64,000 nt of DNA from Candidatus Omnitrophota bacterium (GCA_023818695.1 JAMWCF010000001.1:275306-339305), one strand, 5' to 3'. Shown: positions 1,634 through 33,737, counted from the first letter of the stretch. The notes: generated by a model not told the origin, from the sequence alone. Made by a program: numbers and translations.

Positions 1634-1647
1634 ACGGTAAGACCCAG

Positions 1648-2340: not shown

Positions 2341-2362
2341 AAGAGAAGAGGAGGAGATCGCC

Positions 2363-13180: not shown

Positions 13181-14525
13181 TAAAGCGAAGCGTCTGAAAG
13201 CGGAGATCCTGGAGAAGGTCCGGGCCTATTACGGGCTGGCGCACGGGAGCCCGCCGTTCGTTCCCGGCCGCAGCAAAGTCCCCTACGCCGGCCGGGTTTT
13301 CGGCCCCGAGGAACTGGTCAACCTCGTTGACAGCTCCCTCGATTTCTGGCTGACCCTCGGCTCTTACGGCGACCAGTTTGAAAAACGGATGCGCGGCTTT
13401 TTCGGGGCCAGCGATTTCGTGCTGACCAATTCCGGGTCGACCGCCAACCTGCTGGCCGTGATGACGCTGACCTCCCCGCAGATCAAGGACCCCCTGCGGC
13501 CGGGCGACGAGGTCATCACCTGCGCGGTCGGCTTCCCGACAACGGTCGCCCCTCTGGTCCACGGCGGCCTCGTGCCGGTCTTCATCGACGCCGAGGTGGG
13601 AACTTACAACATTAACCCGGGGCTGATTGAAGAAGCTATCACGGACAAAACGCGGGCGATCATGATCGCCCATACGCTGGGGATTCCCTGCGACATGGAT
13701 GTCATCACCGGAATCGCAAAACGGCATAACCTCTACCTGATCGAAGACTGCTGCGATGCCTTGGGAGGAACATTCCGGGAGCAGAAAGTCGGGACATTCG
13801 GAAACCTGGCGACCTTGAGCTTCTATCCGGCCCACCAGATCACGCTGGGGGAGGGGGGCGGGCTGGTGGTCAACCGGGGAGGGATTCTCCCAAAAACGGC
13901 CCGTTCGATCCGGGACTGGGGGCGCGACTGCTGGTGCCCAACCGGGGTCTCCAACACCTGCGGTAAGCGTTTCGACTGGGAACTGGGTGGGCTGCCCAAG
14001 GGCTACGACCACAAATACATCTATTCCAACATCGGCTACAACTTCAAACCGACTGACCTCCAAGCGGCCATCGGGATGGCGCAGATCGAGAGGATCGGTG
14101 ATTTCGTGGAAAAGAGGCGTCGCAATTTTGAAACGCTCTACCAGGGACTGGCCCCGTTCTCGGACCGACTCATTTTGCCCGTGCGGGACAAGCGGGCTAA
14201 TCCCTCCTGGTTCGGTTTTCCGGTCACTGTCACCAATTCGGTCTCCAAAAACGACCTGGTCCAGCATCTTGAAGGAGCAGGAATAGAAACACGCTCCATC
14301 TTCGGTGGAAACCTGATCCGCCAGCCCGCTTACCAGAAGATCCGGGCGCGCGTCCCCCGGGAAACACCCGAGGCGGACCGGATTATGAGAGATACCTTTT
14401 TTATCGGTGTTTACCCGGGGCTGACGGAGGAGATGATCGCTTACGTCCTGGAAACCTTCAGGCGTTTTTTCGGCGCGCCGCAGCGAGGTACCGGTTGCCA
14501 GGAAAAGCAGAAGGTGATAAGCTAA
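13170..14525 (+). CDS. rfbH: CDP-4-keto-6-deoxy-D-glucose 3-dehydrase (E1; RfbH/DdhC/AscC-like, DegT fold)
   Basis: DegT-family fold of 451 aa. The usual PLP-Lys position reads His (SFYPAHQITLGEGG), as in PMP-dependent E1 dehydrases. DCWCPTGVSNTC matches the C-x-C-x7-C part of the E1 [2Fe-2S] motif, and a CC pair lies about 58 residues upstream. Confidence 0.85.
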   Translation: METDKAKRLKAEILEKVRAYYGLAHGSPPFVPGRSKVPYAGRVFGPEELVNLVDSSLDFWLTLGSYGDQFEKRMRGFFGASDFVLTNSGSTANLLAVMTLTSPQIKDPLRPGDEVITCAVGFPTTVAPLVHGGLVPVFIDAEVGTYNINPGLIEEAITDKTRAIMIAHTLGIPCDMDVITGIAKRHNLYLIEDCCDALGGTFREQKVGTFGNLATLSFYPAHQITLGEGGGLVVNRGGILPKTARSIRDWGRDCWCPTGVSNTCGKRFDWELGGLPKGYDHKYIYSNIGYNFKPTDLQAAIGMAQIERIGDFVEKRRRNFETLYQGLAPFSDRLILPVRDKRANPSWFGFPVTVTNSVSKNDLVQHLEGAGIETRSIFGGNLIRQPAYQKIRARVPRETPEADRIMRDTFFIGVYPGLTEEMIAYVLETFRRFFGAPQRGTGCQEKQKVIS

Positions 14526-19589: not shown

Positions 19590-20240
19590 ATGAAACCAGA
19601 TTCCTTCCGGGAATTGAAGGTTTTAGAGGAGATTTCCAGCAACACCGCCTCCACCCAGCGCCACCTGGCCCAGAAGCTCGGGGTCGCGCTGGGGCTGACC
19701 AACCTTATGATCAGGCGCTGCATTCAAAAAGGGTATCTGAAAGCGGTCAATGTCCGGAAAAACAGGATCCAATACCTCCTCACCCCAAAAGGGGTCGCCG
19801 AAAAGACCCGGTTAACCATCGAATACCTGGAATACTCCATGCACCTCTACCGCCGGGTCCGCCAGATCCTGAAGGAAACCCTGCAGGCCGTTTCGAAAAA
19901 CGGCGGGAAAACGATCGTCTTCTTCGGACGGGGGGAGCTGTCGGAGATCACCTATCTGTCCGTCAAGGAAGCCGGCCTGAATATGGTAGCGATCGTCGAC
20001 GATCAGACCTGCGGAGAATCGTTTCTCGGCCTGCCCGTCATCGAAACAAAAGCGCTGGCCCTCGTGCCGTTTGACTGCGGGATCGTCAGCTCCCTTAACA
20101 GCGGATGGGACAAGTCGAGCAAACAACTGGCCCGGTTCGGGATCCCGGAGGAAAAGATTATCGTGATCGAGCAGAATGGGGCCCAGATCAAGGCGGTCCC
20201 CTTCAAACAGAAAACGGAGCAGGAGCTGGTTCCTCTGTGA
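19590..20240 (+). CDS. Winged-helix (MarR-like, EPS-locus type) transcriptional regulator fused to a C-terminal Rossmann-like domain
   Basis: N-terminus LKVLEEISSNTASTQRHLAQKLGVALGLTNLMIRRCIQKGYLKAVNV...YLLTPKGVAEKTRL reads as a wHTH. C-terminus TIVFFGRGELSEITYLSVKEAGLNMVAIVDDQTCGESFLGLPV resembles the nucleotide-binding-like segment of sugar-transferase and CapD N-termini. Confidence 0.7.
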   Translation: MKPDSFRELKVLEEISSNTASTQRHLAQKLGVALGLTNLMIRRCIQKGYLKAVNVRKNRIQYLLTPKGVAEKTRLTIEYLEYSMHLYRRVRQILKETLQAVSKNGGKTIVFFGRGELSEITYLSVKEAGLNMVAIVDDQTCGESFLGLPVIETKALALVPFDCGIVSSLNSGWDKSSKQLARFGIPEEKIIVIEQNGAQIKAVPFKQKTEQELVPL

Positions 20241-21265
20241 GAGAAACCTCTGTGGTGTTCCGGGTGGCGGGTTCTCCCAGCGGAGGATTCGGGCATATCC
20301 GCCGATGCTGGACCCTGGCTTCACACCTCCGGAATTTCGTCGGGAGGATCGGTTTCATCGCCTCCACCCCGGAGGCGGCACAGGTTCTCCGGAAAGCCGG
20401 CTTCGAAACCTGCGAAGAACCCTCTCCTTCAAGCATCGAAACCACCCTTCGGGTACTGCACCTGATTCCTTCGAAAAAACTCTGCGTGGCGGACGACCCC
20501 TCCCTGACAACGAGCGATCTGGAAAGGTTGAGCAAGGCGGCGGCAACCATCTGTATCGACGATACCTGTGAAAGGGAATTCCCGGTCGAGATGGCCATCA
20601 ACGGATCGGCCGGGGCCCAGTCGCTGCCGTACCGTGGCAGGAGGGACACCCGGTTCCTGCTCGGATCCGATTACATCATGCTGCGCCCCTGCTTCGAGCA
20701 TCCCCCTCAGCGCCGCTGGACCCATGAGCCGCCGAAGAGGATCCTGGTTCTGACAGGCGGAGGGGAAGCCGGGCCCCTTTCGGAAATGATTGTCCGAATC
20801 GTGCGCGGATCTCTTCCGAAGATCCGCATCGATGTCGTGGGCGGGCCCCTTGGTTTTGGAATTTCGAAGACAGCGGAGCAGACCGCCGGCGTCACGGCGC
20901 ACCGGAACCCCGACGACATCCGCTCCCTCATGCTGGCGGCCGACATCGCAGTCAGCGGAGGAGGCCAAACCGCCTATGAGCTGGCCGCCACAGCCACTCC
21001 CACCCTTGGAATCCTGGCGGCTCCCAACCAGCATGTGAACCTCAAGGGGCTCGCCTCGGCGGGAACCCTCCAGGACCTGGGATCTCCGGAGGACCCGGCC
21101 TTCGAAAAAAAATTAAGAGAAGCGGTTCTTCATCTGGCCGGCGACCCGCACAAACGCAGATGGATGGGAGAGGCCGGCAGATTCCTGGTGGACGGAAAAG
21201 GGACTCGGCGGGTCGCGGATGAAATCCTTCATTTGATCGAAGAAAAAGAGCTGACCCGGTCATGA
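20237..21265 (+). CDS. pseG: UDP-2,4-diacetamido-2,4,6-trideoxy-hexose hydrolase-like (PseG-like, GT28-type fold)
   Basis: VFRVAGSPSGGFGHIRRCWTLASHL matches the PseG N-terminal GxGHxxRC pattern. LVLTGGGE and SGGGQTAYELAA are also present. GTG 20237 overlaps the regulator stop; GTG 20252 and 20255 are alternatives. Confidence 0.6.
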   Translation: MRETSVVFRVAGSPSGGFGHIRRCWTLASHLRNFVGRIGFIASTPEAAQVLRKAGFETCEEPSPSSIETTLRVLHLIPSKKLCVADDPSLTTSDLERLSKAAATICIDDTCEREFPVEMAINGSAGAQSLPYRGRRDTRFLLGSDYIMLRPCFEHPPQRRWTHEPPKRILVLTGGGEAGPLSEMIVRIVRGSLPKIRIDVVGGPLGFGISKTAEQTAGVTAHRNPDDIRSLMLAADIAVSGGGQTAYELAATATPTLGILAAPNQHVNLKGLASAGTLQDLGSPEDPAFEKKLREAVLHLAGDPHKRRWMGEAGRFLVDGKGTRRVADEILHLIEEKELTRS

Positions 21266-22188
21266 AAAACGGCGAACAAGGAAAGAGCCGGCTGCTAATC
21301 ACCGGGGTAACCGGACTTCTGGGCAACACGCTGGTCCGAGAGGCCGCTCCTTCCTCCTATGAGGTCCTGGGGATCGCCAGACAGCCGGCGAAAGCGGTCC
21401 CACCCTGCGCCGCGCAGGCCGCAGACATCCTCGACGCGAACGCGCTGGAAAAGATCATATCCTCTTTCCAACCGAACATCGTCGTCCACACCGCGGCAAT
21501 GACCTCCGTGGACCGCTGCCAGGCTGATCCCCAAATGGCAGAGCTGATCAACGTCAAAGGGACCGAAAATCTGCTGCGCTGCCTGACCGATTCCCCATGC
21601 CGGTTCGTTTTCCTCTCCACCGATTCCGTCTTCGACGGCCGGAAGGGGAATTACACGGAGGAAGATCCTGTGGCCCCTCTCCATGTGTACGGGAAAACGA
21701 AACGGAAAGCCGAAGAGCTGATCCTGAAAGAAAGGCCGAAATCCTCCCTCATCATCCGGACCGCCTTTTACGGCTGGAACGTCCTGCCAGACAACAACTC
21801 CCTGGCCGAGTGGATCCTCTCGAACCTGCAGGAGGGCAAGCCGTTCAAGGGATTCGTGGACCTGCTCTTCTCACCGATTCTGACGAACCATCTGGCGCAG
21901 GGAATCCTGGACCTGGCCGACCAGCCGGTGTCGGGGATCGTCCATCTGGCCGGATCGGAGGGGTGCTCGAAATACGAGTTCGCCAGGCAGCTGGCCTCCC
22001 TGTTCGGCTTCCGGCAGGAGCTGATCATTCCGGTCGAAAGCCGAAACGTGAAACTGAAGGTGACCCGGCCGCGCGACGTGACCTTGAACGTCGAAAAGGC
22101 ACAGCAGCTGCTGGAGAGGCCCATGCCGGGGTTGTTGGACGGACTGCGGCTCTTCCAGGCGCTCAAACAGGCGGTGACGACTTCATGA
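21262..22188 (+). CDS. RmlD-like NDP-4-keto-6-deoxy-sugar reductase (SDR)
   Basis: LLITGVTGLLGNTL, STDSVFDGRKGNYTEEDPVAPLHVYGKTKRKAE (RmlD substrate-binding-domain pattern with YxxxK). ATGA overlap upstream. Confidence 0.8.
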   Translation: MKNGEQGKSRLLITGVTGLLGNTLVREAAPSSYEVLGIARQPAKAVPPCAAQAADILDANALEKIISSFQPNIVVHTAAMTSVDRCQADPQMAELINVKGTENLLRCLTDSPCRFVFLSTDSVFDGRKGNYTEEDPVAPLHVYGKTKRKAEELILKERPKSSLIIRTAFYGWNVLPDNNSLAEWILSNLQEGKPFKGFVDLLFSPILTNHLAQGILDLADQPVSGIVHLAGSEGCSKYEFARQLASLFGFRQELIIPVESRNVKLKVTRPRDVTLNVEKAQQLLERPMPGLLDGLRLFQALKQAVTTS

Positions 22189-23900
22189 AAATCCTCGGGA
22201 TCTCATTCCTAGCTGACGCCTCGGCGGCCCTTCTGATCGACGGGAAGGTGGTCGCCGCCGTCGCGGAGGAACGGCTCAACCGGATCAAGCTCTGGAACGG
22301 CATCCCGAAAAGATCGGTGCAGGCGGTGCTCGATATCGCCGGGCTCACAATGGACCAGATCGACCTGATCGCCACGCACGGCGCGGCTCCGCCTGAACCG
22401 GACCCCGCTCCCTTTCTGGAAAAGGAGCAGCTGATCCGGGAATCGGGGCTGACCGCAGAAGAAAAGGATCGGCAACTGGCCCACCTGCGCAGCCGGCTGG
22501 AACATGAGCGGATGGTGCTGGGCACACGAACGCCGGCTTACCTGGATGAAATTCGGACGTACGGCCGGCCTCTGGCAGTCTACGGCCATCACCAGGCCCA
22601 TGCCGCCTGCGCTTATTACGGTTCCGGCTGGACAGAGTGCCTGATTATGACGGTGGACGGATGGGGAGAGGACGGTTCCGGCTCCATCTGGAAAGGGGCC
22701 GGCGGTTCCATCCAACCTGTGAGCCGGACCCCCTCCATCGACTCCCTTGGCTACTTCTACGGCAGCATCACGAAAGCGCTCGGCTTCATCCCGCACCGGC
22801 ATGAGGGAAAAGTGCTTGGACTGGCCGCCTACAACCAAAACCCCGTGTCCTACCCGAAAATCCGGCAGATGATGGATTACGACCCGGCCAGAAAGAGATT
22901 CGTCTCCCGGATGGAAAACGGTCTCTACGTTCCACGGTTCGAAAATCCAGCGCTCAAGGAGTACATCGGACGCTTCAACAGGGAGGACGTCGCCTCCGCC
23001 GCGCAGAAGACCCTGGAAGAGGTGGTCCGGGCTTGCGTGCTGGATCAGGGTGAGGCGGCCGGCAGGATTGCGGTGGCCGGCGGAGTCTTCGCGAACGTCA
23101 AGCTCAACCAGCGGCTGTGCGAACTGCCGAACGTCCGGGAGGTTTATGTCTTCCCAAACATGGGCGACGGCGGATTGGCTGTCGGGACCGCCTGGCTGGC
23201 CTATAAGGAGAAGACAGGCCGGATCCCTGAACCGCTGGAGACCCTTTACCTGGGACCGGGCCCCGCGGAGAAGGAGATCGCCCGCGCCCTCTCCCAGAGC
23301 GGATTGAACTACAAGCATATCCCGGACAGGATCGAAGAGAAAGTGGCCGAACTGCTGGCGGATGGGCAGATCGTGGCCCGGTTCGACGGGCGGATGGAGT
23401 TCGGACCCAGGGCGCTGGGCAACCGGAGCATCCTCTGCCAGGCGACCGACCCGACCATCAACGACTGGCTGAACAAGCGGCTCCAGCGGTCGGAGTTCAT
23501 GCCTTTCGCGCCGGCCACCCTGGCGGAGGATGCGGACGCCCGCTACATCGGCATCGCCTCCGCTCGGAAACCGGCCCGCCACATGACGATCACCTTCGAC
23601 TGTACCCCCCTTCTGCGCTCCGAGGCGCCGGCGGCGGTCCACGTGGACGGAACGGCCCGGCCGCAGGTCGTCTCCGAAAAGGACAACCCCCAGTTTTACC
23701 GGATCCTGAAGCATTACAAACAGCTGACCGGCAGGGCGAGCGTCATCAACACCAGTTTCAACATGCACGAGGAACCGATCGTCTGCACGATCGATGACGC
23801 AATCCGGGCGGTGCAGGCGGGACACCTGCCTTACCTGGCGGCCGGCGATTTCCTGGCGGAGCTGAATCCGGTGCCGGTTCGGGCGGGGGCAAAACCATGA
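22185..23900 (+). CDS. Carbamoyltransferase (NodU/CmcH/TobZ family)
   Basis: MKILGISFLADASAALLIDGKVVAAVAEERLNRIK, HHQAHAACAYY, and the C-terminal FMPFAPA...NTSFNMHEEPIVCT. ATG 22185 forms an ATGA overlap. The 21597..22184 part of the ORF is read-through over the upstream gene. Confidence 0.85.
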   Translation: MKILGISFLADASAALLIDGKVVAAVAEERLNRIKLWNGIPKRSVQAVLDIAGLTMDQIDLIATHGAAPPEPDPAPFLEKEQLIRESGLTAEEKDRQLAHLRSRLEHERMVLGTRTPAYLDEIRTYGRPLAVYGHHQAHAACAYYGSGWTECLIMTVDGWGEDGSGSIWKGAGGSIQPVSRTPSIDSLGYFYGSITKALGFIPHRHEGKVLGLAAYNQNPVSYPKIRQMMDYDPARKRFVSRMENGLYVPRFENPALKEYIGRFNREDVASAAQKTLEEVVRACVLDQGEAAGRIAVAGGVFANVKLNQRLCELPNVREVYVFPNMGDGGLAVGTAWLAYKEKTGRIPEPLETLYLGPGPAEKEIARALSQSGLNYKHIPDRIEEKVAELLADGQIVARFDGRMEFGPRALGNRSILCQATDPTINDWLNKRLQRSEFMPFAPATLAEDADARYIGIASARKPARHMTITFDCTPLLRSEAPAAVHVDGTARPQVVSEKDNPQFYRILKHYKQLTGRASVINTSFNMHEEPIVCTIDDAIRAVQAGHLPYLAAGDFLAELNPVPVRAGAKP

Positions 23901-24940
23901 GACAAGAGATCCAGATCCGGGACAGGGTGATCGGCCAGGAGCGGCCGCTGTTCATCATGGCGGAGTGCGGGGTCACCTGCAACTACGACATGTCGATCAC
24001 CAGGGAACTGATCGACGCGGTGAAGGAGGCGGGGGCGGACGCTATCAAGCTGATCTTCTGGTTCCCGGACGAGATCATGAGCGACAAAACGATCACCTAC
24101 AGCTACGAGACCCTCGAGGGCCCCAAAAGCGAAAACATGCACCGGATGCTCAACCGCCTTCGCTTCACCTTCGAGCAGTGGATGGAGATCAAATCGTATG
24201 CCGACAGGAAAGGGGTAATCCTTTTCTCCACGGTCAACTCCCCCTCCGGCATCGAGTGGGCCGAGAAGCTGGGGCTGGAGGCGTACAAATTGAGCTCCTG
24301 GGACTACAACTACTTTCCCCTCTGGAGGAGGATCGCCGCGCTGGGCAAACCGATGCTGATCGATACCGGCCCGGTCGACACGCTGGACGCGGCAAAGGCA
24401 ATCGAGCTGATGCAGGAGGAGGGCAACGACCAGTCGGTGCTGGTCCACTGCTGTCACGCCGACACCTACGAGGAGCTGAACATGGCCACCATCCCGTACC
24501 TGCGGGAGACGTTCCAAACGCTGGCCGGCTACTCCTCCCGGGACCGCAACCCTGTCCCCGACATCATGGCGGTCACCCTGGGGGCCTGCGTCCTGGAGAA
24601 ACGGCTGACGATGAGCCGGACCCTGCCGGGACACCACCATGTCCTGTCGCTGGAACCGAAGGAGTTCGCGGAGCATGTCCGGGTCCTGCGCCAGGTGCAG
24701 ACCGGCATCGGGAAACCGGACCTGATCCCCAGCAAAGCAGACCTGCATGAAAGAAAACGGTGGTTCAGGCATCTGACGGCCCGGGTTCCGATCAAGAAGG
24801 GAACCGTTCTGACACCCGACCTCCTGGAGGGGATGCGGCCGGAGCAGGGGATCTCGCCGGAATACCTGGAGTATTTCCTCTGGAAACCGGCGCAGAGGGA
24901 CCTGCAGGAGAACGAAGCGATCGGGTGGAACGATGTCTGA
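23897..24940 (+). CDS. Divergent NeuB/PseI-family paralog with SAF domain; canonical active-site motifs substituted
   Basis: Colinear with the two canonical synthases in this window, but key motifs differ. AECGVTCNYD replaces AE(I/A)xxNHxG. IKLIFW replaces xKFQ. GYSSRD replaces GLSDH. LEKRLTMSR replaces EKH(F/L)TL. The SAF-like tail VPIKKGTVLTPDLLEGMRP is retained. Confidence 0.7.
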   Translation: MRQEIQIRDRVIGQERPLFIMAECGVTCNYDMSITRELIDAVKEAGADAIKLIFWFPDEIMSDKTITYSYETLEGPKSENMHRMLNRLRFTFEQWMEIKSYADRKGVILFSTVNSPSGIEWAEKLGLEAYKLSSWDYNYFPLWRRIAALGKPMLIDTGPVDTLDAAKAIELMQEEGNDQSVLVHCCHADTYEELNMATIPYLRETFQTLAGYSSRDRNPVPDIMAVTLGACVLEKRLTMSRTLPGHHHVLSLEPKEFAEHVRVLRQVQTGIGKPDLIPSKADLHERKRWFRHLTARVPIKKGTVLTPDLLEGMRPEQGISPEYLEYFLWKPAQRDLQENEAIGWNDV

Positions 24941-25649
24941 AAAAGGACGGCTTGCCTGTCTCATACCGGCCCGGGGAGGATCGAAGAGATTCCCCGGCAA
25001 GAACATTGCTCCCTTAAGAGGCAAACCGGTGATCGGCTATGCCATCGAGGCGGCCATCGCTTCTCGCCTCTTCCCGGAGGTCTGGGTTTCAACCGACGAC
25101 CAAGCTATCACCGAGGCCGCCTCCCGCTTCGGCGCCCGGATCCATCGCAGGCCCGCGCCGCTGGCCGGGGATTCGGCCCGGCTGGCCGATGTCTGCCTGG
25201 ACTTCTCGGAATGGCTCGCCGGACAGGGAAAACCGGCTGACACCCTCTGCCTGATCCTTCCGACAGCGGCGCTGATGCTTCCGGAGGACCTGACAGGCGG
25301 GCTGGCGCTGATGAAGGAGCGGGAGGCCGATTTCTGCCAGGCGGTCACCTCTTTCATGGAGCCGCCGTTTTGGGCGATGGAGGAGAGAGGCGGGTACCTG
25401 AAGATGGTCTTCGGGGACAAATACCTGGTCGCCTCGCAGAAACTCCCCCCTGTCTGGGTCGACAGCGGCTATTTCTACTTCATGAAGCTGGATGCGCTCA
25501 AGCGGGAGAACCGGCTCTTCGGCGACAAGGCGGTCGGATGGAAGATCCCGCGGGAACGGTCGGTAGACATCGATGAGCCGGGGCACCTGGTAATCGCGGA
25601 GGCGCTGATGGAGGCGCTGGATCGGAAAAAGGCGGAGGTAGTGAGATGA
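24933..25649 (+). CDS. pseF: Pseudaminic-acid-type (nonulosonate) cytidylyltransferase
   Basis: LACLIPARGGSKRFPGKNIAPLRGKPVIGYAIEAAIASRLFPEVWVSTDDQAI follows the PseF/NeuA family pattern. Confidence 0.8.
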   Translation: MSEKGRLACLIPARGGSKRFPGKNIAPLRGKPVIGYAIEAAIASRLFPEVWVSTDDQAITEAASRFGARIHRRPAPLAGDSARLADVCLDFSEWLAGQGKPADTLCLILPTAALMLPEDLTGGLALMKEREADFCQAVTSFMEPPFWAMEERGGYLKMVFGDKYLVASQKLPPVWVDSGYFYFMKLDALKRENRLFGDKAVGWKIPRERSVDIDEPGHLVIAEALMEALDRKKAEVVR

Positions 25650-26677
25650 AGTTCCTCATCGTCGGCTGCGGCTCGATCGGCAGGCGTCATGCCTCCAACC
25701 TGCTGAAGCTCAAGGTGGGAGAGGTGATCGTCTGCGACACCGATCCGGCCCGGCTGGAAGAGATCAAGAAGGAACATGGACTCCGGGGCTTCGCCTCCTT
25801 GGAGGAGGCGCTTCGGGAGAAACCGGAGGCGGCCCTGATCTGCACGCCGACCCATCTGCATGTGCCGGCGGCGCTGGAATGCCTGAAGGCCGGCTGTCAC
25901 CTGTTCATCGAGAAGCCGGTCGCCACCTCTCTGGAGGAAGCTCGACGGCTCATTCCAGCGGCGCGCAATCGGGTCGTACTGACAGCTTGCAACATGCGGT
26001 TCCACCCAGGGGTTATTGCGCTGCATCAAAACCAAAAACTACTTCGACACCCTGTCTTATACAGAGCACGGTTCAGCCACTTTTTACCGAATTGGCGGCC
26101 GGAAACTCCCTATCAAAATACACAAAGCGCCATGACCGAACAGAGCGGGGGAATTATTCTCGAATGTATTCATGAAATCGATTATCTTCGCTGGCTGGCG
26201 GGGCCAATTAAGGGCGTGCGCGCTTTGATCAAATACGGTGTTCACAATCAAGATGAAACGCTCAAAGACATCAAGACGGCTGATTACGCGGTAGTGCTTG
26301 TTGATTTTCAATCCGGGGCAACAGGAGAGATCCGCCTGGATTACCTGCAGCATCCCAAAGAGCGCGGATGCGAAATCGTCAGCCCAGGAGACGGCTCTCT
26401 TTACTGGGGAAGCAAAAATAAACGTCCGGAGGAAGTCGTCGTATTCCACATCAGTAAGGACGGATTACCCAAACCGCTCCTTCCCCCGGATGATTCTTAT
26501 GATCCAAATGATATGTATATAAACGAGATGCGGCATTTTGTAGATTGTCTCGAAAGAAGGGCGGAACCGCTTGTCGGCCTGGATGAAGCGATAGAAACAC
26601 TTCAATGGGCGCTTGAAGCTGCGCGATATGAAATTCCAGAAGCGAAAGGGTATGTGGGCGCATCCATCTTAAAATGA
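25646..26677 (+). CDS. Gfo/Idh/MocA family oxidoreductase
   Basis: MKFLIVGCGSIGRRH Rossmann motif and CHLFIEKPVA (EKP motif). ATGA overlap upstream. The 3' two-thirds of the gene is visibly AT-richer. Confidence 0.8.
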   Translation: MKFLIVGCGSIGRRHASNLLKLKVGEVIVCDTDPARLEEIKKEHGLRGFASLEEALREKPEAALICTPTHLHVPAALECLKAGCHLFIEKPVATSLEEARRLIPAARNRVVLTACNMRFHPGVIALHQNQKLLRHPVLYRARFSHFLPNWRPETPYQNTQSAMTEQSGGIILECIHEIDYLRWLAGPIKGVRALIKYGVHNQDETLKDIKTADYAVVLVDFQSGATGEIRLDYLQHPKERGCEIVSPGDGSLYWGSKNKRPEEVVVFHISKDGLPKPLLPPDDSYDPNDMYINEMRHFVDCLERRAEPLVGLDEAIETLQWALEAARYEIPEAKGYVGASILK

Positions 26678-27294
26678 AAACAACGTCATCCAAACCCAAA
26701 AGAGCTTCAAACCAAAAGCTGAACCGCCCGTTCCTGGTCGGCAAAAGGATTTACCTTCGCCCCATGGAGATGACCGATCTGGATGGGCCGTACTTCGACT
26801 GGCTCAACGATTACGAGGTGACCCGCTTCCTGGAGACCGGCTCCTTTCCAACCACCACCGCCACACTGCGGCATTACCTGAAGAACATCGCCAAGCATCC
26901 CAACAACGTGATGCTGGCGATCATGGAGAAGAGAACCAATCGCCATGTCGGCAACGTCAAACTGGGAAACATCCACCCCCTTCACCGGAACGCCGACATC
27001 GGGATCATGGTGGGGGACAAGAGGGTCTGGGGCAAGGGGTACGGCTCGGAGGCGATGGAGCTGATGCTGGAGTATGGCTTCAAGCGGCTGAACCTTCACA
27101 AGATCACCCTGGGGGTTTACGCCGACCATGAAGGGGCGGTCAAGGCGTACAAAAAACTGGGGTTCACCGTGGAGGGTGTGCTGAAGGAGCACCTGTTCCG
27201 GGATGGCGGCTTCCGGGACAAAACGGTGATGGGGATCTTAAAGAGCGACTACGAGAGATCGAGGAGAGCCGGGGATGGCAAAAACAACGGCTGA
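26674..27294 (+). CDS. GNAT family N-acetyltransferase (RimJ/RimL-like; PseH-like role possible)
   Basis: IGIMVGDKRVWGKGYGSEAMELMLEYGFKRLNLHKITLGVYADHEGAVKAYKKLGF is an acetyl-CoA binding motif A. Confidence 0.85.
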   Translation: MKTTSSKPKRASNQKLNRPFLVGKRIYLRPMEMTDLDGPYFDWLNDYEVTRFLETGSFPTTTATLRHYLKNIAKHPNNVMLAIMEKRTNRHVGNVKLGNIHPLHRNADIGIMVGDKRVWGKGYGSEAMELMLEYGFKRLNLHKITLGVYADHEGAVKAYKKLGFTVEGVLKEHLFRDGGFRDKTVMGILKSDYERSRRAGDGKNNG

Positions 27295-28636
27295 ACCGCT
27301 CACCATCCAGGAGATCTGCCGAAACCTGATGGAGGAACCGCCGGTCCCGGTGCTGGAGCGCCGGTTGGACCGCTCCATGGAGCTCAAGCGCAGGGCCGAA
27401 AAGCTGATCCCCTCCTGCTCGCAGACCTTCAGCAAGGGGCCGTCCCAGTTCGTGCAGGGGATCGCCCCTGTCTACCTGGAAAGGGGATCCGGCTGCACCG
27501 TCTGGGATGTGGACGGCAACTCTTACCTTGACTACTGCATGGCGCTCGGTGCGGTTCTTCTTGGCTACGGGGATTCCAGGGTGTCCCAGGCGGTGTCGGT
27601 CCAGATGAAGCAGGGAACGGTCTTCACCTTAAGCCACCCTCTGGAGGTGGAGCTGTCGGAAACGCTCCGGCGGCTGATCCCCTGCGCCGAGATGGTCCGG
27701 TTCGGCAAGAACGGCTCCGACGTCACCTCGGCGGCGGTCCGGCTGGCGAGGGGATTCACCGGCAGGGAGATGATCGCCTGCTGCGGCTATCACGGCTGGC
27801 AGGACTGGTACATCGGGGCGACAACCCGCAACAGGGGAGTACCGGAACCGGTAGCCCGGCTGACAAAGACATTCAAATACAACGACCTGGGATCGCTGGA
27901 AGAACTATTCCGTCAGTATCCCGGTAAAATCGCCGCGGTGATCATGGAGCCGGTGGGCCTTGTGGAACCGAAGCCGGGGTTCCTGGAAGGGGTGCAGAAG
28001 CTGGCTCGGAAAAACGAAGCCCTGCTTGTCTTCGACGAGATGGTGACCGGGTTCCGGTTCGGCACGGGGGGCGCGCAGCAATATTTCGGGGTGACGCCGG
28101 ACATGGCCTGCTTCGGCAAGGGGATGGCCAACGGGATGGCGGTCTCGGCGATCGTGGGACGCCGGGATGTGATGGAGCTGTTCGACGAGATCTTCTTTTC
28201 CTTCACCTTCGCCGGAGAGACCGCCTCGCTGGCCGCGGCGCTGGCCACCCTGCAGGCGCTGGAAGAGCCCGGAGTCCTGGAAGGAATCTGGGCCCGGGGC
28301 CGGCAAATCCAGGAAGGGTACAACCTGCTGGCCGAATCATACGGCTTGAAAGGAGAAACCGAGTGCGTCGGCCTTCCCCCCCGGACCGGCATCTCTTTCC
28401 ATCCGGATGAAACGGCGCTGGCGATGAAAACCTTCGTCCAGCAGGAGTGCATCAAGAGGGGATATCTTTTCACAGGCGCCCACAATCTCTGCGCGGCCCA
28501 CAACGAGCAGGCCGTCGAATCGGTCTTGCGAATCTACCGGACGGTCCTGGAACTTTTGGCGGCCCGGATCAGGGACGGGGCCTTGCTCTGCTCCCTCGAA
28601 GGGCCGGTGATTCAGCCGGTCTTCAGAAAGATGTGA
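27275..28636 (+). CDS. Class-III aminotransferase (glutamate-1-semialdehyde aminomutase-like)
   Basis: SQTFSKGPSQF, GSDVTSAAVRLAR, LVFDEMVTGFR, and CFGKGMANGMAVSAIVG (PLP-Lys context). Confidence 0.85.
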   Translation: MAKTTAEPLTIQEICRNLMEEPPVPVLERRLDRSMELKRRAEKLIPSCSQTFSKGPSQFVQGIAPVYLERGSGCTVWDVDGNSYLDYCMALGAVLLGYGDSRVSQAVSVQMKQGTVFTLSHPLEVELSETLRRLIPCAEMVRFGKNGSDVTSAAVRLARGFTGREMIACCGYHGWQDWYIGATTRNRGVPEPVARLTKTFKYNDLGSLEELFRQYPGKIAAVIMEPVGLVEPKPGFLEGVQKLARKNEALLVFDEMVTGFRFGTGGAQQYFGVTPDMACFGKGMANGMAVSAIVGRRDVMELFDEIFFSFTFAGETASLAAALATLQALEEPGVLEGIWARGRQIQEGYNLLAESYGLKGETECVGLPPRTGISFHPDETALAMKTFVQQECIKRGYLFTGAHNLCAAHNEQAVESVLRIYRTVLELLAARIRDGALLCSLEGPVIQPVFRKM

Positions 28637-28638
28637 CG

Positions 28639-29766
28639 ATGACGGACACAACCCCTTTCATCGAGATCAACGGGCGAAAGATTGGGCCCGGTTTTCCGGT
28701 CTACGTGGTGGCCGAGATCTCCTGCAACCACAACGGTTCCTTTGACAGGGCGGTCGAGCTGATCCGGCTGGCAAAGGAGGCCGGTGCCGACGCCGCCAAG
28801 TTCCAGACCTACACCGCCGACACGATCACCATCGACTCGGAAGAGCAATGGTTCCAGATCCGGCATGAGAGTCTCTGGGAAGGCAGGAATCTTTACGACC
28901 TGTACCGGGAGGCCCACACCCCCTGGGAATGGCAGCCGAAGCTGAAGAAGATAGCGCAAGAGACCGGGATCGATTTCTTCTGCTCCCCGTTCGACCCGAC
29001 CGCCGTCGATTTCCTGGAGAAGGAGGTGGGGGTGCCGGCTTACAAGGTGGCCTCCTTTGAGATCGTGGACATCCTCCTGATCCAGAAGATCGCCGCGACA
29101 GGCAAACCGATGATCCTCTCCACCGGCCTGGCCAACTTCCGGGAGATCGCCGAGGCGGTCCAGGCGGCCCGCCAGGCCGGCTGCAGACAAGTCGCCCTCT
29201 TGAAATGCACCAGCAACTACCCGGCGAAGCCGTCCGAGATGAAGATTTCCTCGATACCGCACCTGGCCCGGGCTTTCCACTGCCCGGTCGGGCTGTCGGA
29301 CCACACCCTGGGAAGCGAGGTGGCCCTCGGCGCGGTGGCGCTGGGCGCCTGCATTGTGGAGAAACATCTGACCCTCTCCAGGAAGGAGGGGGGACCGGAC
29401 GCCGGTTTCTCGCTGGAGCCGGGGGAGTTCGCCGACCTGGTGCAGGGGGTCCGGACGGTGGAGCAGGCGATCGGGACCCCGGACTATAAGCTGACGCTGG
29501 AAGAAGAGAAAAATCTGATGTTCCGCCGCTCTTTGTTCGTGGTGGCCAACATGAAGGCGGGTGAAACCTTCACGCCTCAAAATGTCCGCTCGATCCGGCC
29601 GGGGCACGGCCTGGCCCCGAAACATCTTCCACTTGTGCTCGGAAAGAAGGCGGCCCGGAATATCCGCCGCGGCACGCCGCTGGACTGGACGCTGATCGTC
29701 TCCAGCCCCGTAGATGATAAAAATGACGAACCAATCGACCGAAAAAGAGAACTCGACGCTGTTTGA
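28639..29766 (+). CDS. pseI: Pseudaminic acid synthase (PseI, NeuB family with SAF domain)
   Basis: VYVVAEISCNHNGS, AKFQTY, SLWEGRNLYDLYREAHTPWEW (PseI-typical), YKVASFE, LSTGL, LKCTSNYP, GLSDHT, VEKHLTL..GGPD. ATG 28639 lies 2 nt after the upstream stop. Confidence 0.85.
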   Translation: MTDTTPFIEINGRKIGPGFPVYVVAEISCNHNGSFDRAVELIRLAKEAGADAAKFQTYTADTITIDSEEQWFQIRHESLWEGRNLYDLYREAHTPWEWQPKLKKIAQETGIDFFCSPFDPTAVDFLEKEVGVPAYKVASFEIVDILLIQKIAATGKPMILSTGLANFREIAEAVQAARQAGCRQVALLKCTSNYPAKPSEMKISSIPHLARAFHCPVGLSDHTLGSEVALGAVALGACIVEKHLTLSRKEGGPDAGFSLEPGEFADLVQGVRTVEQAIGTPDYKLTLEEEKNLMFRRSLFVVANMKAGETFTPQNVRSIRPGHGLAPKHLPLVLGKKAARNIRRGTPLDWTLIVSSPVDDKNDEPIDRKRELDAV

Positions 29767-30922
29767 GAGCGCTCAAAAGCTTAAGCGGTGCGTCCGCTGT
29801 CTCCTGGCGGAAACGCACGACACCATCCTCTTCGATGCCGAAGGAGTCTGCAACATCTGCCGGAACATCGAGCACAAGAAAGAGGTCATCGACTGGCCGG
29901 CAAAGGAAAAGGAGTTCCGGGAGATCCTCGACCGGTACCGGGGCAAGCACGCTTACGACTGCATCATCCCCTTCAGCGGGGGAAAGGACAGCGCCTACAC
30001 CGCCTACGCCCTGGTCAGAAATTACGGCGTCAAGCCGCTGGTCGTCTGCTTCGACCACGGCTTCATGCGGCCGACCGTCTTGGCCAACACCGAGAAGACG
30101 ATCCGGGCGTTGGGGGTCGACTTCTTGAAGTTTCGGGCCGGCTGGAAGGTGGTCCGGCGGCTCATGGTGGAAAGCTTGAAGCGCAAAGGGGACTTCTGCT
30201 GGCACTGCCACACCGGCATCTTCTCATTCCCCATGCAGATGGCGATCCGGTTCCAGGTGCCTCTGGTGATCTGGGGGCAGCCAAACACCGAATACAACGC
30301 CTATTTCCGAATGGATGAGCCGGAGCTGGTCGATGAAAAGCGGTACAACCGGTACATCAACCTGGGGATCACCGCCGAAGACATGGCCGGGATGCTGGGA
30401 CCGGAGATCGATGCGAGGGACCTGGAGCCGTTCCGCTACCCACCGAAGGAGGAGCTGAAGAAGCTCGGCTACCGTTCCATCTGCATGGGGACCTATATCC
30501 CCTGGGACGTCAAAAAACAGGTGGAGATTATCGAAAAGGAGCTCGGCTGGCAGGAGGACGCGGTAGAGGGGGTCCCCCCGGAATACGGTTACGAGAAGAT
30601 CGAATGTTTCCTGCAGGGGGTCCGGGATTACCTGCGCTTTATCAAGCGGGGGATGGGCCGGACGAACCACCTGGCCTGCATCGACATCCGGGACGGACGC
30701 CTGACGCGGGAAGAGGGAGAGCGCCTGATGCGGGAGTTCGACGGCAAGCGGCCGGCCTCTCTCGACGTCTTCCTGAAGATGGTCGAGATCACCGAAGAGG
30801 AGTTCAATAAGATCGCCCTTGAGCATGCAGTCTATCCCCATCAGCCGGACTTGAGCAGCGTGGAGAAGGGGCAGCCGCTCTGGGACCAACAATTCTGGCT
30901 GATTCCCGGGAAGAAAGAATGA
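29714..30922 (+). CDS. N-acetyl sugar amidotransferase (PP-loop ATPase; WbpG/PseA/WbuX-like), copy 1
   Basis: Zinc-ribbon-like CVRC...CNIC, PP-loop PFSGGKDSAY, and CWHCH. Followed by HisH/HisF homologs, as in known acetamidino-sugar loci. Start may be ATG 29714 or 29723. Confidence 0.85.
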   Translation: MIKMTNQSTEKENSTLFESAQKLKRCVRCLLAETHDTILFDAEGVCNICRNIEHKKEVIDWPAKEKEFREILDRYRGKHAYDCIIPFSGGKDSAYTAYALVRNYGVKPLVVCFDHGFMRPTVLANTEKTIRALGVDFLKFRAGWKVVRRLMVESLKRKGDFCWHCHTGIFSFPMQMAIRFQVPLVIWGQPNTEYNAYFRMDEPELVDEKRYNRYINLGITAEDMAGMLGPEIDARDLEPFRYPPKEELKKLGYRSICMGTYIPWDVKKQVEIIEKELGWQEDAVEGVPPEYGYEKIECFLQGVRDYLRFIKRGMGRTNHLACIDIRDGRLTREEGERLMREFDGKRPASLDVFLKMVEITEEEFNKIALEHAVYPHQPDLSSVEKGQPLWDQQFWLIPGKKE

Positions 30923-32361
30923 AAGTCACGATCATCGACTACGGGATGGGGAACTTGAGTTCGGTAGCGAGGGCCTTCGAATCCCTCAACGCCGAGGTGC
31001 AGGTGACCAACAGCCCCGCCGACATCGAGAGGGCGCAGCGGCTTGTCCTGCCGGGCGTGGGGGCCTTCGGTCAGGGGATGAGGAACCTGGAGCGGCTTGG
31101 CCTGCGACAACCGCTTGAGAAGGCGGTACTCCACGCGAAAACCCCCTTGCTGGGGATCTGTCTGGGCATGCAGCTGATGGCGAAAGAGAGCTGGGAACAG
31201 GGGCGGCACCAGGGACTCGGCTGGGTGCCGGCCGCCGTCAAGCCCTTCCAGGGAAACGGCTCGCTGAAAACAATCCATATCGGCTGGAACGAGGTGGTGC
31301 CGGCAAGGCCGAGCTTCCTCTTCAAGGGTCTGCGGCGCGTCCCTTACTTCTATTTTGTTCACGGCTACCATGTCACCTGCGAGGAACCGGACGCAGTGGC
31401 CGCCACCTCTACGTACGGCGGCCCGTTCCATTCGGCGCTCGCCGCGGGAAACATCGCCGGTGTCCAGTTCCACCCGGAGAAGAGCCAGGAGGCGGGGCTC
31501 GGCCTGCTGAAGAACTTTCTGAACTGGAACCCAGACGCCGATGAAGAGACTCCGATGGATTCCCTGAAACCGAACGGAAAAGGGGCCCCAAACCTGCGGC
31601 TGATCCCAACTCTTCTCTATTACAAAGGCCGGTTGACGAAAACGATCAGGTTCCAGATCCAGAATGAGGGGATCCGAAGGGATGTGGGGCACCCGGTCAA
31701 GGCCCCGATGGTTTACGATGCTCAATTGGCCGACGAGCTGATCTTCCTGGATTTCCGGGCGACGGTTGAAGGGCGGGGGATCGAGGAACTGCGAGGGGCA
31801 GTTGCAGAGATCGCCGGGCGGGCCTTCATGCCGCTGACAGCCGGAGGAGGAATCCGGTCCGTGGAGGATATCCGATCGCTGCTTCTGGCCGGGGCCGACA
31901 AGGTGGCGATCAACAGCGCCGCGGTGGAGCGGCCTGATCTCATCTGGGAAGCGGCCGGGGTCTTCGGGAGCCAGTGCATTGTGGTCTCCATCGACGCCAA
32001 GAGGACGGGGGACCGGTATGAAGTTTTCACGCGTAGCGGGACAACCCCAACAGGTCTGGACCCGGCCGAGTGGGCCAAAAAAGCAGAAGGGCTTGGAGCC
32101 GGGGAAATCCTCCTGACATCCATCGACCGGGACGGCACGATGGCGGGCTATGACCTGGAGCTGATCCGCCGGGTGGCATCGGCCGTCAAGATCCCGGTGA
32201 TCGCTTCCGGCGGCTCCGGCACACTGCGAGACCTGGCCGACGCGGCGATCCAGGGAGAGGCATCAGCGGTGGCAGCCGCCTCGATCTTCCACTTCCGGGA
32301 CGTCAGTCCCATCAAGGCGAAGGCCTTTTTGAAGCGGGTACCGCTTCCAATCAGGGATTGA
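30919..32361 (+). CDS. Fused HisH-HisF-like imidazole-glycerol-phosphate-synthase homolog (glutaminase plus cyclase domains in one 480-aa polypeptide)
   Basis: The N-terminal domain has LPGVGAFG, GICLGMQ (catalytic Cys) and QFHPEKS. A linker of about 25 aa (NWNPDADEETPMDSLKPNGKGAPN) follows. The HisF-like barrel then has LIPTLLYYKGR, GGGIRS, DKVAINSAAV and ASGGSG. The reading frame is uninterrupted. Confidence 0.85.
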   Translation: MKVTIIDYGMGNLSSVARAFESLNAEVQVTNSPADIERAQRLVLPGVGAFGQGMRNLERLGLRQPLEKAVLHAKTPLLGICLGMQLMAKESWEQGRHQGLGWVPAAVKPFQGNGSLKTIHIGWNEVVPARPSFLFKGLRRVPYFYFVHGYHVTCEEPDAVAATSTYGGPFHSALAAGNIAGVQFHPEKSQEAGLGLLKNFLNWNPDADEETPMDSLKPNGKGAPNLRLIPTLLYYKGRLTKTIRFQIQNEGIRRDVGHPVKAPMVYDAQLADELIFLDFRATVEGRGIEELRGAVAEIAGRAFMPLTAGGGIRSVEDIRSLLLAGADKVAINSAAVERPDLIWEAAGVFGSQCIVVSIDAKRTGDRYEVFTRSGTTPTGLDPAEWAKKAEGLGAGEILLTSIDRDGTMAGYDLELIRRVASAVKIPVIASGGSGTLRDLADAAIQGEASAVAAASIFHFRDVSPIKAKAFLKRVPLPIRD

Positions 32362-32365
32362 GCAG

Positions 32366-33025
32366 ATGATCGCGCTGGTGGATTACGGGATGGGGAACTT
32401 GAGGTCGGTGGCCAACGCCTTCGAGGCGATTGGCGAAAAACCGGTGATCACTCATTCCAGGGCGGAGATCGAGTCGGCCGCCGGGATCGTCCTGCCGGGC
32501 GTGGGGGCCTTCGGCGACGGGATGAAGAACCTGCGCCGGCTGGAGCTGATCGAGACACTTAACAGAGAGGTGTTGGAAAAGAAGAAACCGTACCTGGGAA
32601 TCTGTCTCGGCATGCAGTTTCTCACAGATGAGAGCGAAGAACACGGGCTCCACAAGGGGTTCGGCTGGATCAAAGGCCGGATCCGGGAGATCAAACCGGC
32701 AGACAAGCGGTACAAAGTTCCCCATATGGGATGGAACGAGCTGCAAATCCTCAAGGAAGGGGGGCTCTTTCAGGGGCTTCCGGAAGCGCCGGTCTTCTAC
32801 TTCGTCCACAGCTACCATCTCGAGCCGGCGGAACCTGGAGTCATCACAGCGGTCTGCCGCCATGGGGCCGAGGTGACGGCGGCAGTGGAAAAGGAAAATA
32901 TCGTTGGAGTCCAGTTCCACCCGGAGAAAAGCCAGCGGGTGGGACTGCAGCTTCTGAAAAATTTCGTCCGGATGGTCAAAGAGCATGCTGAAAAAACGGC
33001 TGATACCTGTTCTCATCCTGCGTGA
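32366..33025 (+). CDS. HisH-like glutamine amidotransferase subunit (WbuY-like)
   Basis: MIALVDYGMGNLRSV, LPGVGAFG, GICLGMQ, QFHPEKS. Confidence 0.9.
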   Translation: MIALVDYGMGNLRSVANAFEAIGEKPVITHSRAEIESAAGIVLPGVGAFGDGMKNLRRLELIETLNREVLEKKKPYLGICLGMQFLTDESEEHGLHKGFGWIKGRIREIKPADKRYKVPHMGWNELQILKEGGLFQGLPEAPVFYFVHSYHLEPAEPGVITAVCRHGAEVTAAVEKENIVGVQFHPEKSQRVGLQLLKNFVRMVKEHAEKTADTCSHPA

Positions 33026-33737
33026 CGGGCAGGTCGTCCAGAGCATCCAGTTCAGGCACACCAATGTGATCCATTGGAATCCGGTCACCGCGGTGGATTT
33101 TTTCAACAAGTGGGCGGTGGATGAGATCCTCCTGCTGGATGTCAGCCGGACGACGGAAAACCGGCAGAAATTTTACGATGCAGTCCACACGCTCTCGGCG
33201 AAATGTTTCGTCCCTCTGACCGTCGGCGGATGGGTGACCAGCACGGAGGAGATCCGGAAACTCCTGCGGCTCGGGGCGGACAAGGTCTCCGTCAACACGC
33301 AGGCGGTCCGGCACCCCGAGTTCATCTCCGAGGCGGCTCAAATCTTCGGAAGCCAGTGCATTGTGGTGTCGATCGATGTCAAAAAGATCGACGGCGCCCG
33401 CCGGGTGGTGATCGACCGGGGACGGGAAATCACGGAGCTGGCGCCGGTCGAATGGGCGAGGGAAGCCGAAAAGCGGGGGGCGGGGGAGATCTTCCTAACC
33501 TCCATTGACCACGACGGCACCCGCAGCGGCTATGACCTGGAGCTGATGCGCCAGGTCTCACATGCGGTTTCGATCCCGGTGATCGCCTTCGGAGGGGCGT
33601 TCGCCTGGGAACATCTGGCGGAAGGAATTTTGGCAGGCGCTGAAGCGTGCGCCGCCGCCAACGTCTTCCATTTCACGGAGCACAGCACCAAGAAGGCCAA
33701 GGAACACTTGAGAAAGGCAGGGATTGAGGTCCGATGA
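32985..33737 (+). CDS. HisF-like cyclase subunit (WbuZ-like)
   Basis: LIPVLILRDGQVV, VGGWV (GGGI position), DKVSVNTQAV, and IAFGGA with a C-terminal phosphate-binding pattern. Overlaps the HisH-like gene by 41 nt. Confidence 0.9.
   Translation: MLKKRLIPVLILRDGQVVQSIQFRHTNVIHWNPVTAVDFFNKWAVDEILLLDVSRTTENRQKFYDAVHTLSAKCFVPLTVGGWVTSTEEIRKLLRLGADKVSVNTQAVRHPEFISEAAQIFGSQCIVVSIDVKKIDGARRVVIDRGREITELAPVEWAREAEKRGAGEIFLTSIDHDGTRSGYDLELMRQVSHAVSIPVIAFGGAFAWEHLAEGILAGAEACAAANVFHFTEHSTKKAKEHLRKAGIEVR

Follow-up and report, generated by a model that had tools for sequence, protein, structure and literature searches.

Nonulosonic acids (sialic, legionaminic and pseudaminic acids) decorate flagella, lipopolysaccharides (LPS), capsules and S-layers, and the pathways that make them are considered well mapped: six enzymes lead to cytidine monophosphate-pseudaminic acid (CMP-Pse). 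Here we describe a seventh protein in pseudaminic acid (Pse) gene clusters, which is highly conserved and derived from a synthase, but in which the catalytic metal site has been replaced. The gene occupies positions 23897..24940 (+ strand) of a 64,000-nucleotide stretch of DNA from Candidatus Omnitrophota bacterium (GCA_023818695.1 JAMWCF010000001.1:275306-339305), referred to below as the window, and it encodes a NeuB-family triosephosphate isomerase (TIM) barrel with a C-terminal SAF domain and a remodelled active site, which we call NeuB*. An earlier reading of the window, made from its sequence only, had picked out this gene by eye as a paralog of two canonical synthases nearby in which both metal-ligand histidines and the NHxG and KFQ motifs were replaced, and had proposed neofunctionalisation rather than decay.

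The best point of reference is NeuB of N. meningitidis (NmNeuB), whose residue numbering we use unless target numbering is stated. There the metal is held by His215 and His236, the phosphate of phosphoenolpyruvate (PEP) by S132, S154, S213 and N184, and the sugar by D247, Q55, Y186 and R314 from the other subunit (PMC11339185, citing Gunawan et al. 2005), Arg314 reaching into the active site of its partner (PMC11339185). NeuB* has the TIM barrel and SAF domain of NmNeuB (PDB 1XUU/1XUZ; TIGR03569) and shares E25, K53, K129, S132, S213, E234 and R314 with it, but the two are only ~25% identical and H215, H236, S154, N184, Q55, Y186 and D247 are all replaced. The best structural match is PseI (C. 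jejuni 8H2C; TIGR03586; 28639-29766 in the window), which belongs to the same type of cluster, is similar in length and has the same beta2-alpha2 insertion. However, PseI and NeuB* are only 26-31% identical, PseI of the same locus keeps every canonical residue, and NeuB* falls in a separate monophyletic clade. By sequence, the best match among solved structures is SpsE of B. subtilis (PDB 1VLI, E 6e-38), which aligns over the full length including the SAF domain but has the canonical SDH, EKH and GADH motifs. For the lost metal site itself the nearest analogy is the division between class I and class II synthases of 3-deoxy-D-manno-octulosonate 8-phosphate (KDO8P). The metal-independent (class I) KDO8P synthases are PEP-utilising aldolase-type TIM barrels that have lost the metal site and are still active. 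There it takes no more than one Cys-to-Asn change, and the sites for phosphate and sugar stay as they were, whereas in NeuB* at least 10 pocket positions have changed in concert, including phosphate ligands.

Active site of NeuB*

The NeuB* gene is a full-length, intact member of the NeuB fold family, with an uninterrupted open reading frame (ORF) of 347 codons encoding 347 amino acids (aa). It is tightly coupled to both neighbours, as the sequence-only reading had it: its start codon and the stop codon of the carbamoyltransferase gene upstream share an ATGA at 23897-23900 (stop at 23900), and its last 8 nucleotides are shared with the start of a PseF-like gene at 24933. The claimed TIM-barrel-plus-SAF architecture also stands. 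Pfam assigns NeuB (PF03102) with 165.3 bits against a cut-off of 22.1, and SAF (PF08666) with 23.3 bits against a cut-off of 21 at residues 293-347. An AlphaFold2 model built from 17 orthologs, with a mean predicted local distance difference test score of 87.6, retains the whole fold, and in Foldseek searches its top match is C. jejuni PseI (8h2c, template modelling (TM) score 0.82). It also matches NmNeuB (1xuu, E 1e-29, TM 0.75), and its next structural neighbours are the synthases of 3-deoxy-D-arabino-heptulosonate 7-phosphate (DAHP) and of KDO8P. At the level of the NCBIfam equivalogs the protein falls far short: it scores 201 bits on the NeuB model TIGR03569 (cut-off 399.65) and 175.2 bits on the PseI model TIGR03586 (cut-off 340.25).

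Because the substitutions had been read by eye, their register matters. HMMER alignments to the solved NeuB, PseI and SpsE structures, MAFFT alignment with NmNeuB and the two canonical window paralogs (2363-3403 and 28639-29766, both present as claimed) and hmmalign all agree, and they reproduce the by-eye register for AECGVTCNYD, KLIFW, GYSSRD, LEKRLT and PGHHH. The segments that follow are all on the + strand and are labelled in target numbering. At A22-ECGVTCNY-D31 (23960..23989), the counterpart of AE..NH.G, the glutamate E23 (Nm E25) is kept while N29 has become T and H30 has become C. K51-LIFW55 (24047..24061) stands for KFQ: the PEP-carboxylate lysine (Nm K53) is kept and the sugar-contact Gln55 is Ile. 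K131-LSSWD136 (24287..24304) keeps Nm K129 and S132, with G133 replaced by Trp and E134 by Asp. In I155-DTGP159 (24359..24373) the PEP-phosphate ligand Ser154 is Asp (target D156), and in H184-CCH187 (24446..24457) one residue is deleted at the phosphate ligand N184 and the sugar-contact Tyr186 is His. The two metal positions lie in G211-YSSRD216 (24527..24544) and E234-KRLT238 (24596..24610), which take the place of GLSDH and EKH: His215 and His236 both read Arg, D214 is S, and S213 and E234 are kept. Finally, P244-GHHH248 (24626..24640) replaces GPD(H)/GGPD, with the sugar-contact Asp247 and P246 both changed to His, and the SAF (AFP-like) domain (24773..24937) keeps Arg314 in an R314-PE motif.

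In total, neither metal ligand remains in NeuB*, and two phosphate ligands (S154 and residue 184) and three sugar contacts (Q55I, Y186H and D247H) are gone as well, but the protein has kept E23, K51, K131, S134, S213, E234 and R314, corresponding to Nm E25, K53, K129, S132, S213, E234 and R314. The canonical His/His Mn site cannot be used by this protein, and in equivalog scores, metal ligands and phosphate ligands NeuB* departs from what defines the NeuB, LegI and PseI synthases.

Breadth and conservation of the NeuB* clade

A search of 5.8 billion proteins returned 567 matches at E<=1e-10. The best 120 clusters of these matches (clustered at 90% identity) have 62-82% identity, and the length is exactly 347 aa in almost all; the core subfamily thus comprises at least 120 such clusters, with Omnitrophota, Methylomirabilota and cyanobacteria among the sources. 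Orthologs number in the hundreds and, with few exceptions, have a length of exactly 347 aa; their identity across phyla is 55-82%. Scanning one genome per species gave 30 orthologous loci (L001-L030; 40-82% identity), all in metagenome-assembled genomes, from Planctomycetia, Omnitrophota, Desulfobacterota, Nitrospiraceae, Acidobacteriota, Ignavibacteriales, Rokubacteria and several lineages of the candidate phyla radiation (CPR). The carriers overall are Omnitrophota, Planctomycetota, Desulfobacterota, Nitrospirota, Acidobacteriota, Methylomirabilota, Cyanobacteria, CPR bacteria and marine or environmental phages, although among INPHARED phages and PLSDB plasmids we found no carrier, all matches there being canonical and at most 31% identical.

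To read the signature of the clade we searched 1.84 billion 50%-identity representatives with HMMER and inspected the best 150: 24 have the NeuB* signature, ~7 are intermediate and 113 are canonical. Both metal-ligand histidines (Nm His215 and His236) are present in 113/113 of the canonical representatives. In the NeuB* clade, position 236 is Arg in 24/24, compared with His in all 113 canonical sequences, and the other clade-invariant changes are N29T, G133W, S154D, the loss of residue 184, Y186H and D247H. Specifically, T29 is found in 20/21 representatives, W133 in 23/23, D154 in 24/24 (canonical S in 106/113), the gap at residue 184 in 24/24, H186 in 20/21 and H247 in 21/23; H246 is found in 18/23 and H248 is usually present. 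Five of these changes, G133W, S154D, the deletion of residue 184, Y186H and D247H, go beyond those listed in the sequence-only reading. The kept residues are just as constant, with K53 at 100%, K129 in 23/23, R314 in 21/21, and the PEP-carboxylate lysines K53 and K129, the glutamates E25 and E234 and the trans-acting R314 all conserved at 90-100%. The 24 representatives are only ~34% identical, and invariant D154, R236, W133, H186, H247 and T29 stand in them beside kept E25, K53, K129, S213, E234, K235 and R314. The canonical set of phosphate ligands is incomplete throughout the clade, with D in place of S154, no residue at 184 and S132 conserved to only 60%; S213 alone is kept. Position 55 varies (Q, M or I), and so does position 215 (D in seven, P in four, S in three, A in three, and others including R and K). 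The claim of Arg at both metal positions therefore describes the target correctly (R215 and R236) but not the clade, in which only R236 is invariant; the orthologs, among which the sequence-only reading had proposed to look for the R/R pair, all share R236 and have D, P, S, A, R or K at 215.

In a neighbour-joining tree, which carries no support values, NeuB* is monophyletic and the intermediate sequences form a separate clade. Within the NeuB family this monophyletic clade branches deeply and has so far not been characterised: NCBIfam and Pfam have no curated family for it beyond generic NeuB, the PDB search found no solved structure, and the literature searched, which includes a large phylogeny of nonulosonic acid synthases (PMC8208679), does not describe it. 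We also found no informative domain fusion; the one candidate, a 539-aa homolog (P0065), was rejected because its N-terminal extension looks like a gene-calling artefact on a high-GC contig. Public annotations call clade members 'N-acetylneuraminate synthase', 'legionaminate synthase' or 'SpsE', and because automated annotation thus names NeuB* as NeuB, LegI or SpsE, the capability to make sialic acid is overpredicted in metagenomes. The signature T29, W133, D154, H186, R236, H247 provides a simple rule for separating NeuB* from canonical synthases.

Selection on the gene is as strong as on its neighbours. The ratio of nonsynonymous to synonymous substitution rates (dN/dS) of NeuB* against its two closest orthologs is 0.14 and 0.26, at a dS of ~0.9 that is near saturation, and the values for PseF, PseI and the carbamoyltransferase in these loci are the same. 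Of the proteins in the cluster, NeuB* is conserved best across phyla, with 55-82% identity compared with 47-67% for most PseI and 32-76% for PseF. For example, in locus L008 the identities are 62% for NeuB*, 62% for PseI, 46% for PseB and 37% for PseF, and in L017 they are 59% for NeuB* and 48% for PseI. In an alignment of 20 full-length clade representatives (34% mean identity), conservation reaches 90% or more in only 30 of 336 columns, and these 30 include 10 of the 16 columns homologous to NmNeuB ligand contacts (hypergeometric p ~4e-8); a Mann-Whitney test on conservation gives p ~3e-6. The remodelled pocket is the most conserved region of NeuB*.

These data bear directly on the simplest alternative, namely that the gene is a functionless copy of neuB or pseI, inactive or in decay. 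The loss of both Mn-ligand histidines together with the NHxG and KFQ motifs is what such a duplicate might show, but the ORF is uninterrupted, almost all of the at least 120 distinct clusters of orthologs, from many phyla, have exactly 347 aa, dN/dS is 0.14-0.26 like that of the neighbouring enzymes, and the gene is carried by streamlined phage genomes. Because the pocket is under the strongest constraint of the whole protein, decay is excluded for practical purposes, with a residual probability that we consider negligible, and ligand binding or catalysis is favoured. The sequence-only reading was right on this point.

The intermediate clade deserves a separate description. Its members (L031:10001-11056, L033:3274-4326 and L034:114-1163, and the representatives P0153, P0172, P0196, P0198, P0200 and P0247) include a Thermoplasmata archaeon, have no specific NCBIfam model, and adjoin PseF in Pse clusters that already have PseI. 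Like NeuB*, they are thus a second NeuB-family gene beside PseF in Pse clusters, and they have N29T and S154D. Unlike NeuB*, they keep H30, Q55, Y186 and the SDH motif with H215, and they have EKT or EKP for EKR and PEH for GHHH. This clade, with its own place in the neighbour-joining tree, is also uncharacterised.

Pse clusters and the role of NeuB*

The genes around NeuB* place it in Pse biosynthesis. A PseF-like gene lies directly downstream in ~26/33 evaluable loci, and a canonical PseI lies within ~6 kb in ~20/22 loci with enough flanking sequence. The constant neighbours are adjacent PseF, a PseB-like dehydratase, a DegT-type aminotransferase, usually PseG, and canonical PseI, so that NeuB* co-localises with PseB, PseC, PseG, PseI and PseF. 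In a complete 5.1-Mb genome the order is PseC-PseB-PseG-formyltransferase-PseI-NeuB*-PseF-Capsule_synth glycosyltransferase, with a single cytidylyltransferase, and the compact eight-gene cluster of the L040 type is a directly testable system for reconstitution. Two IMG/VR phage contigs with capsid genes, L044 (IMGVR_UViG_3300033149_001893) and L045 (IMGVR_UViG_3300001533_003131), and one phage-like Tara/ENA contig (L041) carry NeuB* together with PseF, PseB and DegT. The phage Pse modules consist of PseB, DegT, NeuB*, PseF, PAPS-reductase-like/WbuX, GNAT, formyltransferase, and GT29 and Capsule_synth transferases. PseG was not detected in the phage loci and in some CPR loci carrying NeuB*.

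The partner PseI of most cellular loci has every canonical catalytic residue, its own SAF domain and R314, and for this reason no synthase is missing from the clusters. NeuB* is a functional protein of Pse biosynthesis that, in most loci, does not replace PseI. We also considered a replacement of PseG or PseH, for which we found no support: PseG and GNAT or formyltransferase genes usually co-occur with NeuB*, and NeuB* is present with or without PseG. The exceptions among the partners are few. Two have no R314, and three (L017:15912-17021, L029:3613-4749 and L042:10099-11136) read GFSDNN for G(L)SDH, which makes the first metal-ligand His at 215 an Asn, with EKH and GPD/GAD kept.

An extra synthase-like protein of this kind points to one of three possibilities: an unrecognised chemical step and sugar, the first nonulosonate synthase with a shifted metal site, or a regulatory subunit derived from a paralog. 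We favour the first, though tentatively, since the odds are somewhat against even this reading: NeuB* would be a working enzyme that has taken on a new function at a late step of the pathway, still binding a 2-oxo-acid moiety but no longer relying on PEP/Mn chemistry. The reading starts from the observation that NeuB* accompanies canonical PseI and is usually linked translationally to the CMP-activating PseF. In the pocket, the half that would hold the carboxylate or 2-oxo-acid end of PEP or of the product is kept (E25, K53, K129, S213 and E234, with Arg314 from the SAF domain), while the Mn site of His215 and His236 is gone together with two to three of the four ligands of the PEP phosphate, a new invariant set (D154, R236, H186, H247 and W133) taking their place. 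Because the carboxylate half is kept and the phosphate half is lost or relaxed, the pattern suggests a 2-oxo-acid ligand and no PEP/Mn condensation. Such a ligand would be a 3-deoxy-2-ulosonic-acid or pyruvyl moiety, i.e., pyruvate or the C1-C3 end of an open-chain nonulosonate. Similarly, the PseI-NeuB*-PseF arrangement with a single activating enzyme suggests a late step, which would act on free Pse or its immediate precursor between PseI and PseF, before CMP activation. Candidate reactions would be of an aldol or enolisation type, e.g., an epimerisation or a pyruvate-dependent aldol step, with R236, perhaps paired with D154, occupying the former metal/phosphate position and with H186 and H246-248 as candidate acid/base residues or new metal ligands. 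The more specific proposal is correspondingly more doubtful: that NeuB* catalyses a reaction undescribed on the NeuB scaffold, for example a PEP- and Mn-independent aldol, retro-aldol or enolisation step by which Pse or its hexose precursor would be made into another nonulosonate, a stereoisomer or a derivative, ahead of CMP activation. If true, it would mean a new enzyme class and unrecognised surface sugars of bacteria and phages, widespread in uncultured phyla including CPR. We also considered a deacetylase role for the new His/Asp cluster and set it aside, because the kept carboxylate site argues for an oxo-acid ligand and L009 and L022 have separate PIG-L-like genes, recognised by an N-terminal motif only.

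Several points weigh against the late-acting enzyme. The D154-R236 pairing and the filled phosphate site are themselves putative, drawn from the alignment, and PEP binding is still compatible with the pocket, as S213 and partly S132 are kept and cationic R236 and H246-248 are new. The new His/Asp cluster (D154, H186 and H247, with the mostly conserved H246 and H248) could be a relocated metal site. Gene order is weak evidence for reaction order, and no PseI was found nearby in L023 across 21 kb, or in L004, L007 and L010, which are truncated. Two phage contigs pair NeuB* with a NeuB that has no SAF domain, which fits the alternatives better. The original claim needs to be divided: neofunctionalisation, or at least a conserved non-canonical role, was the right class of explanation, but 'metal-independent' is not supported, because a relocated His/Asp metal site could exist.

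A relocated or absent metal site leads directly to the second possibility, a second genuine nonulosonic acid synthase that would still condense PEP with a 6-deoxy-hexosamine, which we regard as rather unlikely though not far behind. By analogy with metal-independent KDO8P synthases, R236 and histidines might take the role of Mn2+ as electrophilic catalyst, and the specificity for the sugar or its face would differ from that of PseI, e.g., by yielding a C4 epimer or accepting a non-N-acetylated hexose. A synthase would need the glutamates for the catalytic water (E25 and E234), the lysines for the PEP carboxylate (K53 and K129), S213 and the essential R314, all of which are invariant, and the change of all three sugar contacts Q55, Y186 and D247 is as expected for a new sugar substrate. 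The position of NeuB* immediately upstream of a cytidylyltransferase is the classical order of synthase and activating enzyme, formyl- or carbamoyltransferases are frequent in the clusters, and in L023 there is no other NeuB within the 21 kb. However, S154D puts a carboxylate at a phosphate-binding position, the phosphate ligand at residue 184 is deleted, and S132 is conserved at only 60%. Moreover, the complete PseI found in nearly every locus is accompanied by a single cytidylyltransferase and a single set of enzymes that form the hexose, and a second synthase is not obviously needed when C. jejuni PseI already takes varied N-acyl groups (PMC13576459).

The third possibility is that NeuB* is not a catalyst at all, but a paralog working as a domain-swapped heterodimer with PseI or together with PseF in a complex. 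The synthase site would receive Arg314 from the SAF domain of NeuB*, and the remodelled pocket of NeuB* would serve as a ligand sensor (feedback by Pse or CMP-Pse) or as part of a channelling scaffold. Both canonical metal ligands are lost, an active paralog almost always co-occurs, R314 and the SAF domain are strictly kept, and NeuB* is tightly coupled to PseF, all of which such a subunit would explain. The phage contigs L044 and L045 add to this, since the canonical NeuB that accompanies full-length NeuB* there has no SAF domain (278 and 212 aa, respectively) and complementation in trans would account for the pair. We nevertheless consider this improbable, and less likely than a second synthase. 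In most cellular loci complementation is not needed, the partner PseI having a SAF domain and R314 of its own, and NeuB proteins without SAF also exist alone (PMC8208679; PDB 6ncs). Evolution is slower in NeuB* than in PseI, the residues conserved most are polar or charged ones in the pocket, as is typical of catalysis, and we found neither a fusion protein nor evidence of direct interaction.

Neighbouring genes and other pathways in the window

The window is a large LPS/polysaccharide locus with a Wzt ABC transporter, NeuA/NeuB/NeuC, CDP-hexose genes, many glycosyltransferases, two Capsule_synth-family proteins, an O-antigen ligase and heptosyltransferases. Upstream of NeuB* lie, in order, a PseG-like gene, an RmlD-like gene and the carbamoyltransferase gene; downstream follow the PseF-like gene, a Gfo/Idh/MocA oxidoreductase, a GNAT protein, a class-III aminotransferase, PseI and two WbuX/HisH/HisF acetamidino sets. 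Four of these are annotated in detail, all on the + strand. The PseG-like uridine diphosphate-sugar hydrolase (20237..21265) scores 127.9 bits on TIGR03590, below the cut-off of 153.6, and the PseF-like CMP-nonulosonate cytidylyltransferase (24933..25649) scores 173.6 bits on TIGR03584, below 205.7, and matches Pfam CTP_transf_3. Canonical PseI (28639..29766) reaches 459.6 bits on TIGR03586 (cut-off 340) with all catalytic residues canonical. The fourth is a NodU/CmcH-type carbamoyltransferase (22185..23900; Pfam Carbam_trans_N and Carbam_trans_C).

This carbamoyltransferase is a lineage-specific neighbour. The sequence-only reading had suggested checking orthologs for the same linkage, but the gene adjoins NeuB* only in the window, L001 and L002, and we rejected a functional link as a general feature on these grounds. 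Formyltransferase-like genes are frequent in NeuB* clusters; the entries are L009:6408-7816, L022:13671-15043, L014:4072-4851, L040:8218-8811, L042:11906-12553 and L045:8766-9254, with putative PIG-L-type deacetylases in L009 and L022, recognised by an N-terminal sequence motif only. Non-acetyl one-carbon N-acyl groups may be a common theme of these clusters, the window lineage having a carbamoyltransferase instead.

Between PseF and PseI, positions 25646-28636 of the window encode the Gfo/Idh/MocA oxidoreductase, the GNAT protein and the class-III aminotransferase, which resembles glutamate-1-semialdehyde aminomutase. The same trio is found in L001, L002 and L011, and partly in L007. Its logic is that of converting a hydroxyl on a sugar to an N-acetyl group, possibly adding an extra amino group to the nonulosonate. 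No DegT-type PseC was found near the window Pse genes; the DegT-family gene at 13170-14525 scores as RfbH.

Downstream of PseI there are two complete N-acetyl-sugar amidotransferase sets. The first consists of WbuX (29714-30922) and a HisH-HisF fusion (30919-32361), and the second of HisH (32366-33025), HisF (32985-33737) and WbuX (33734-35047). Together (29714-35047) they suggest two acetamidino groups on the sugar. The second set accompanies NeuB* in ~12 loci.

A separate module at 1537-4550 contains NeuA-like, NeuB and NeuC genes beside a Wzt-type ABC transporter ATPase, and because of it the locus has two independent nonulosonate pathways. Its NeuB (2363-3403) has the canonical residues and 340 bits, just below the NeuB cut-off, and its NeuC is a hydrolysing 2-epimerase (381 bits). 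Further downstream, 38614-40101 and 41158-42666 encode two proteins of ~500 aa with weak Capsule_synth (PF05159) matches. A homolog follows PseF in the L040 cluster and is also present in L042 and L045, and these proteins are candidate CMP-nonulosonate glycosyltransferases.

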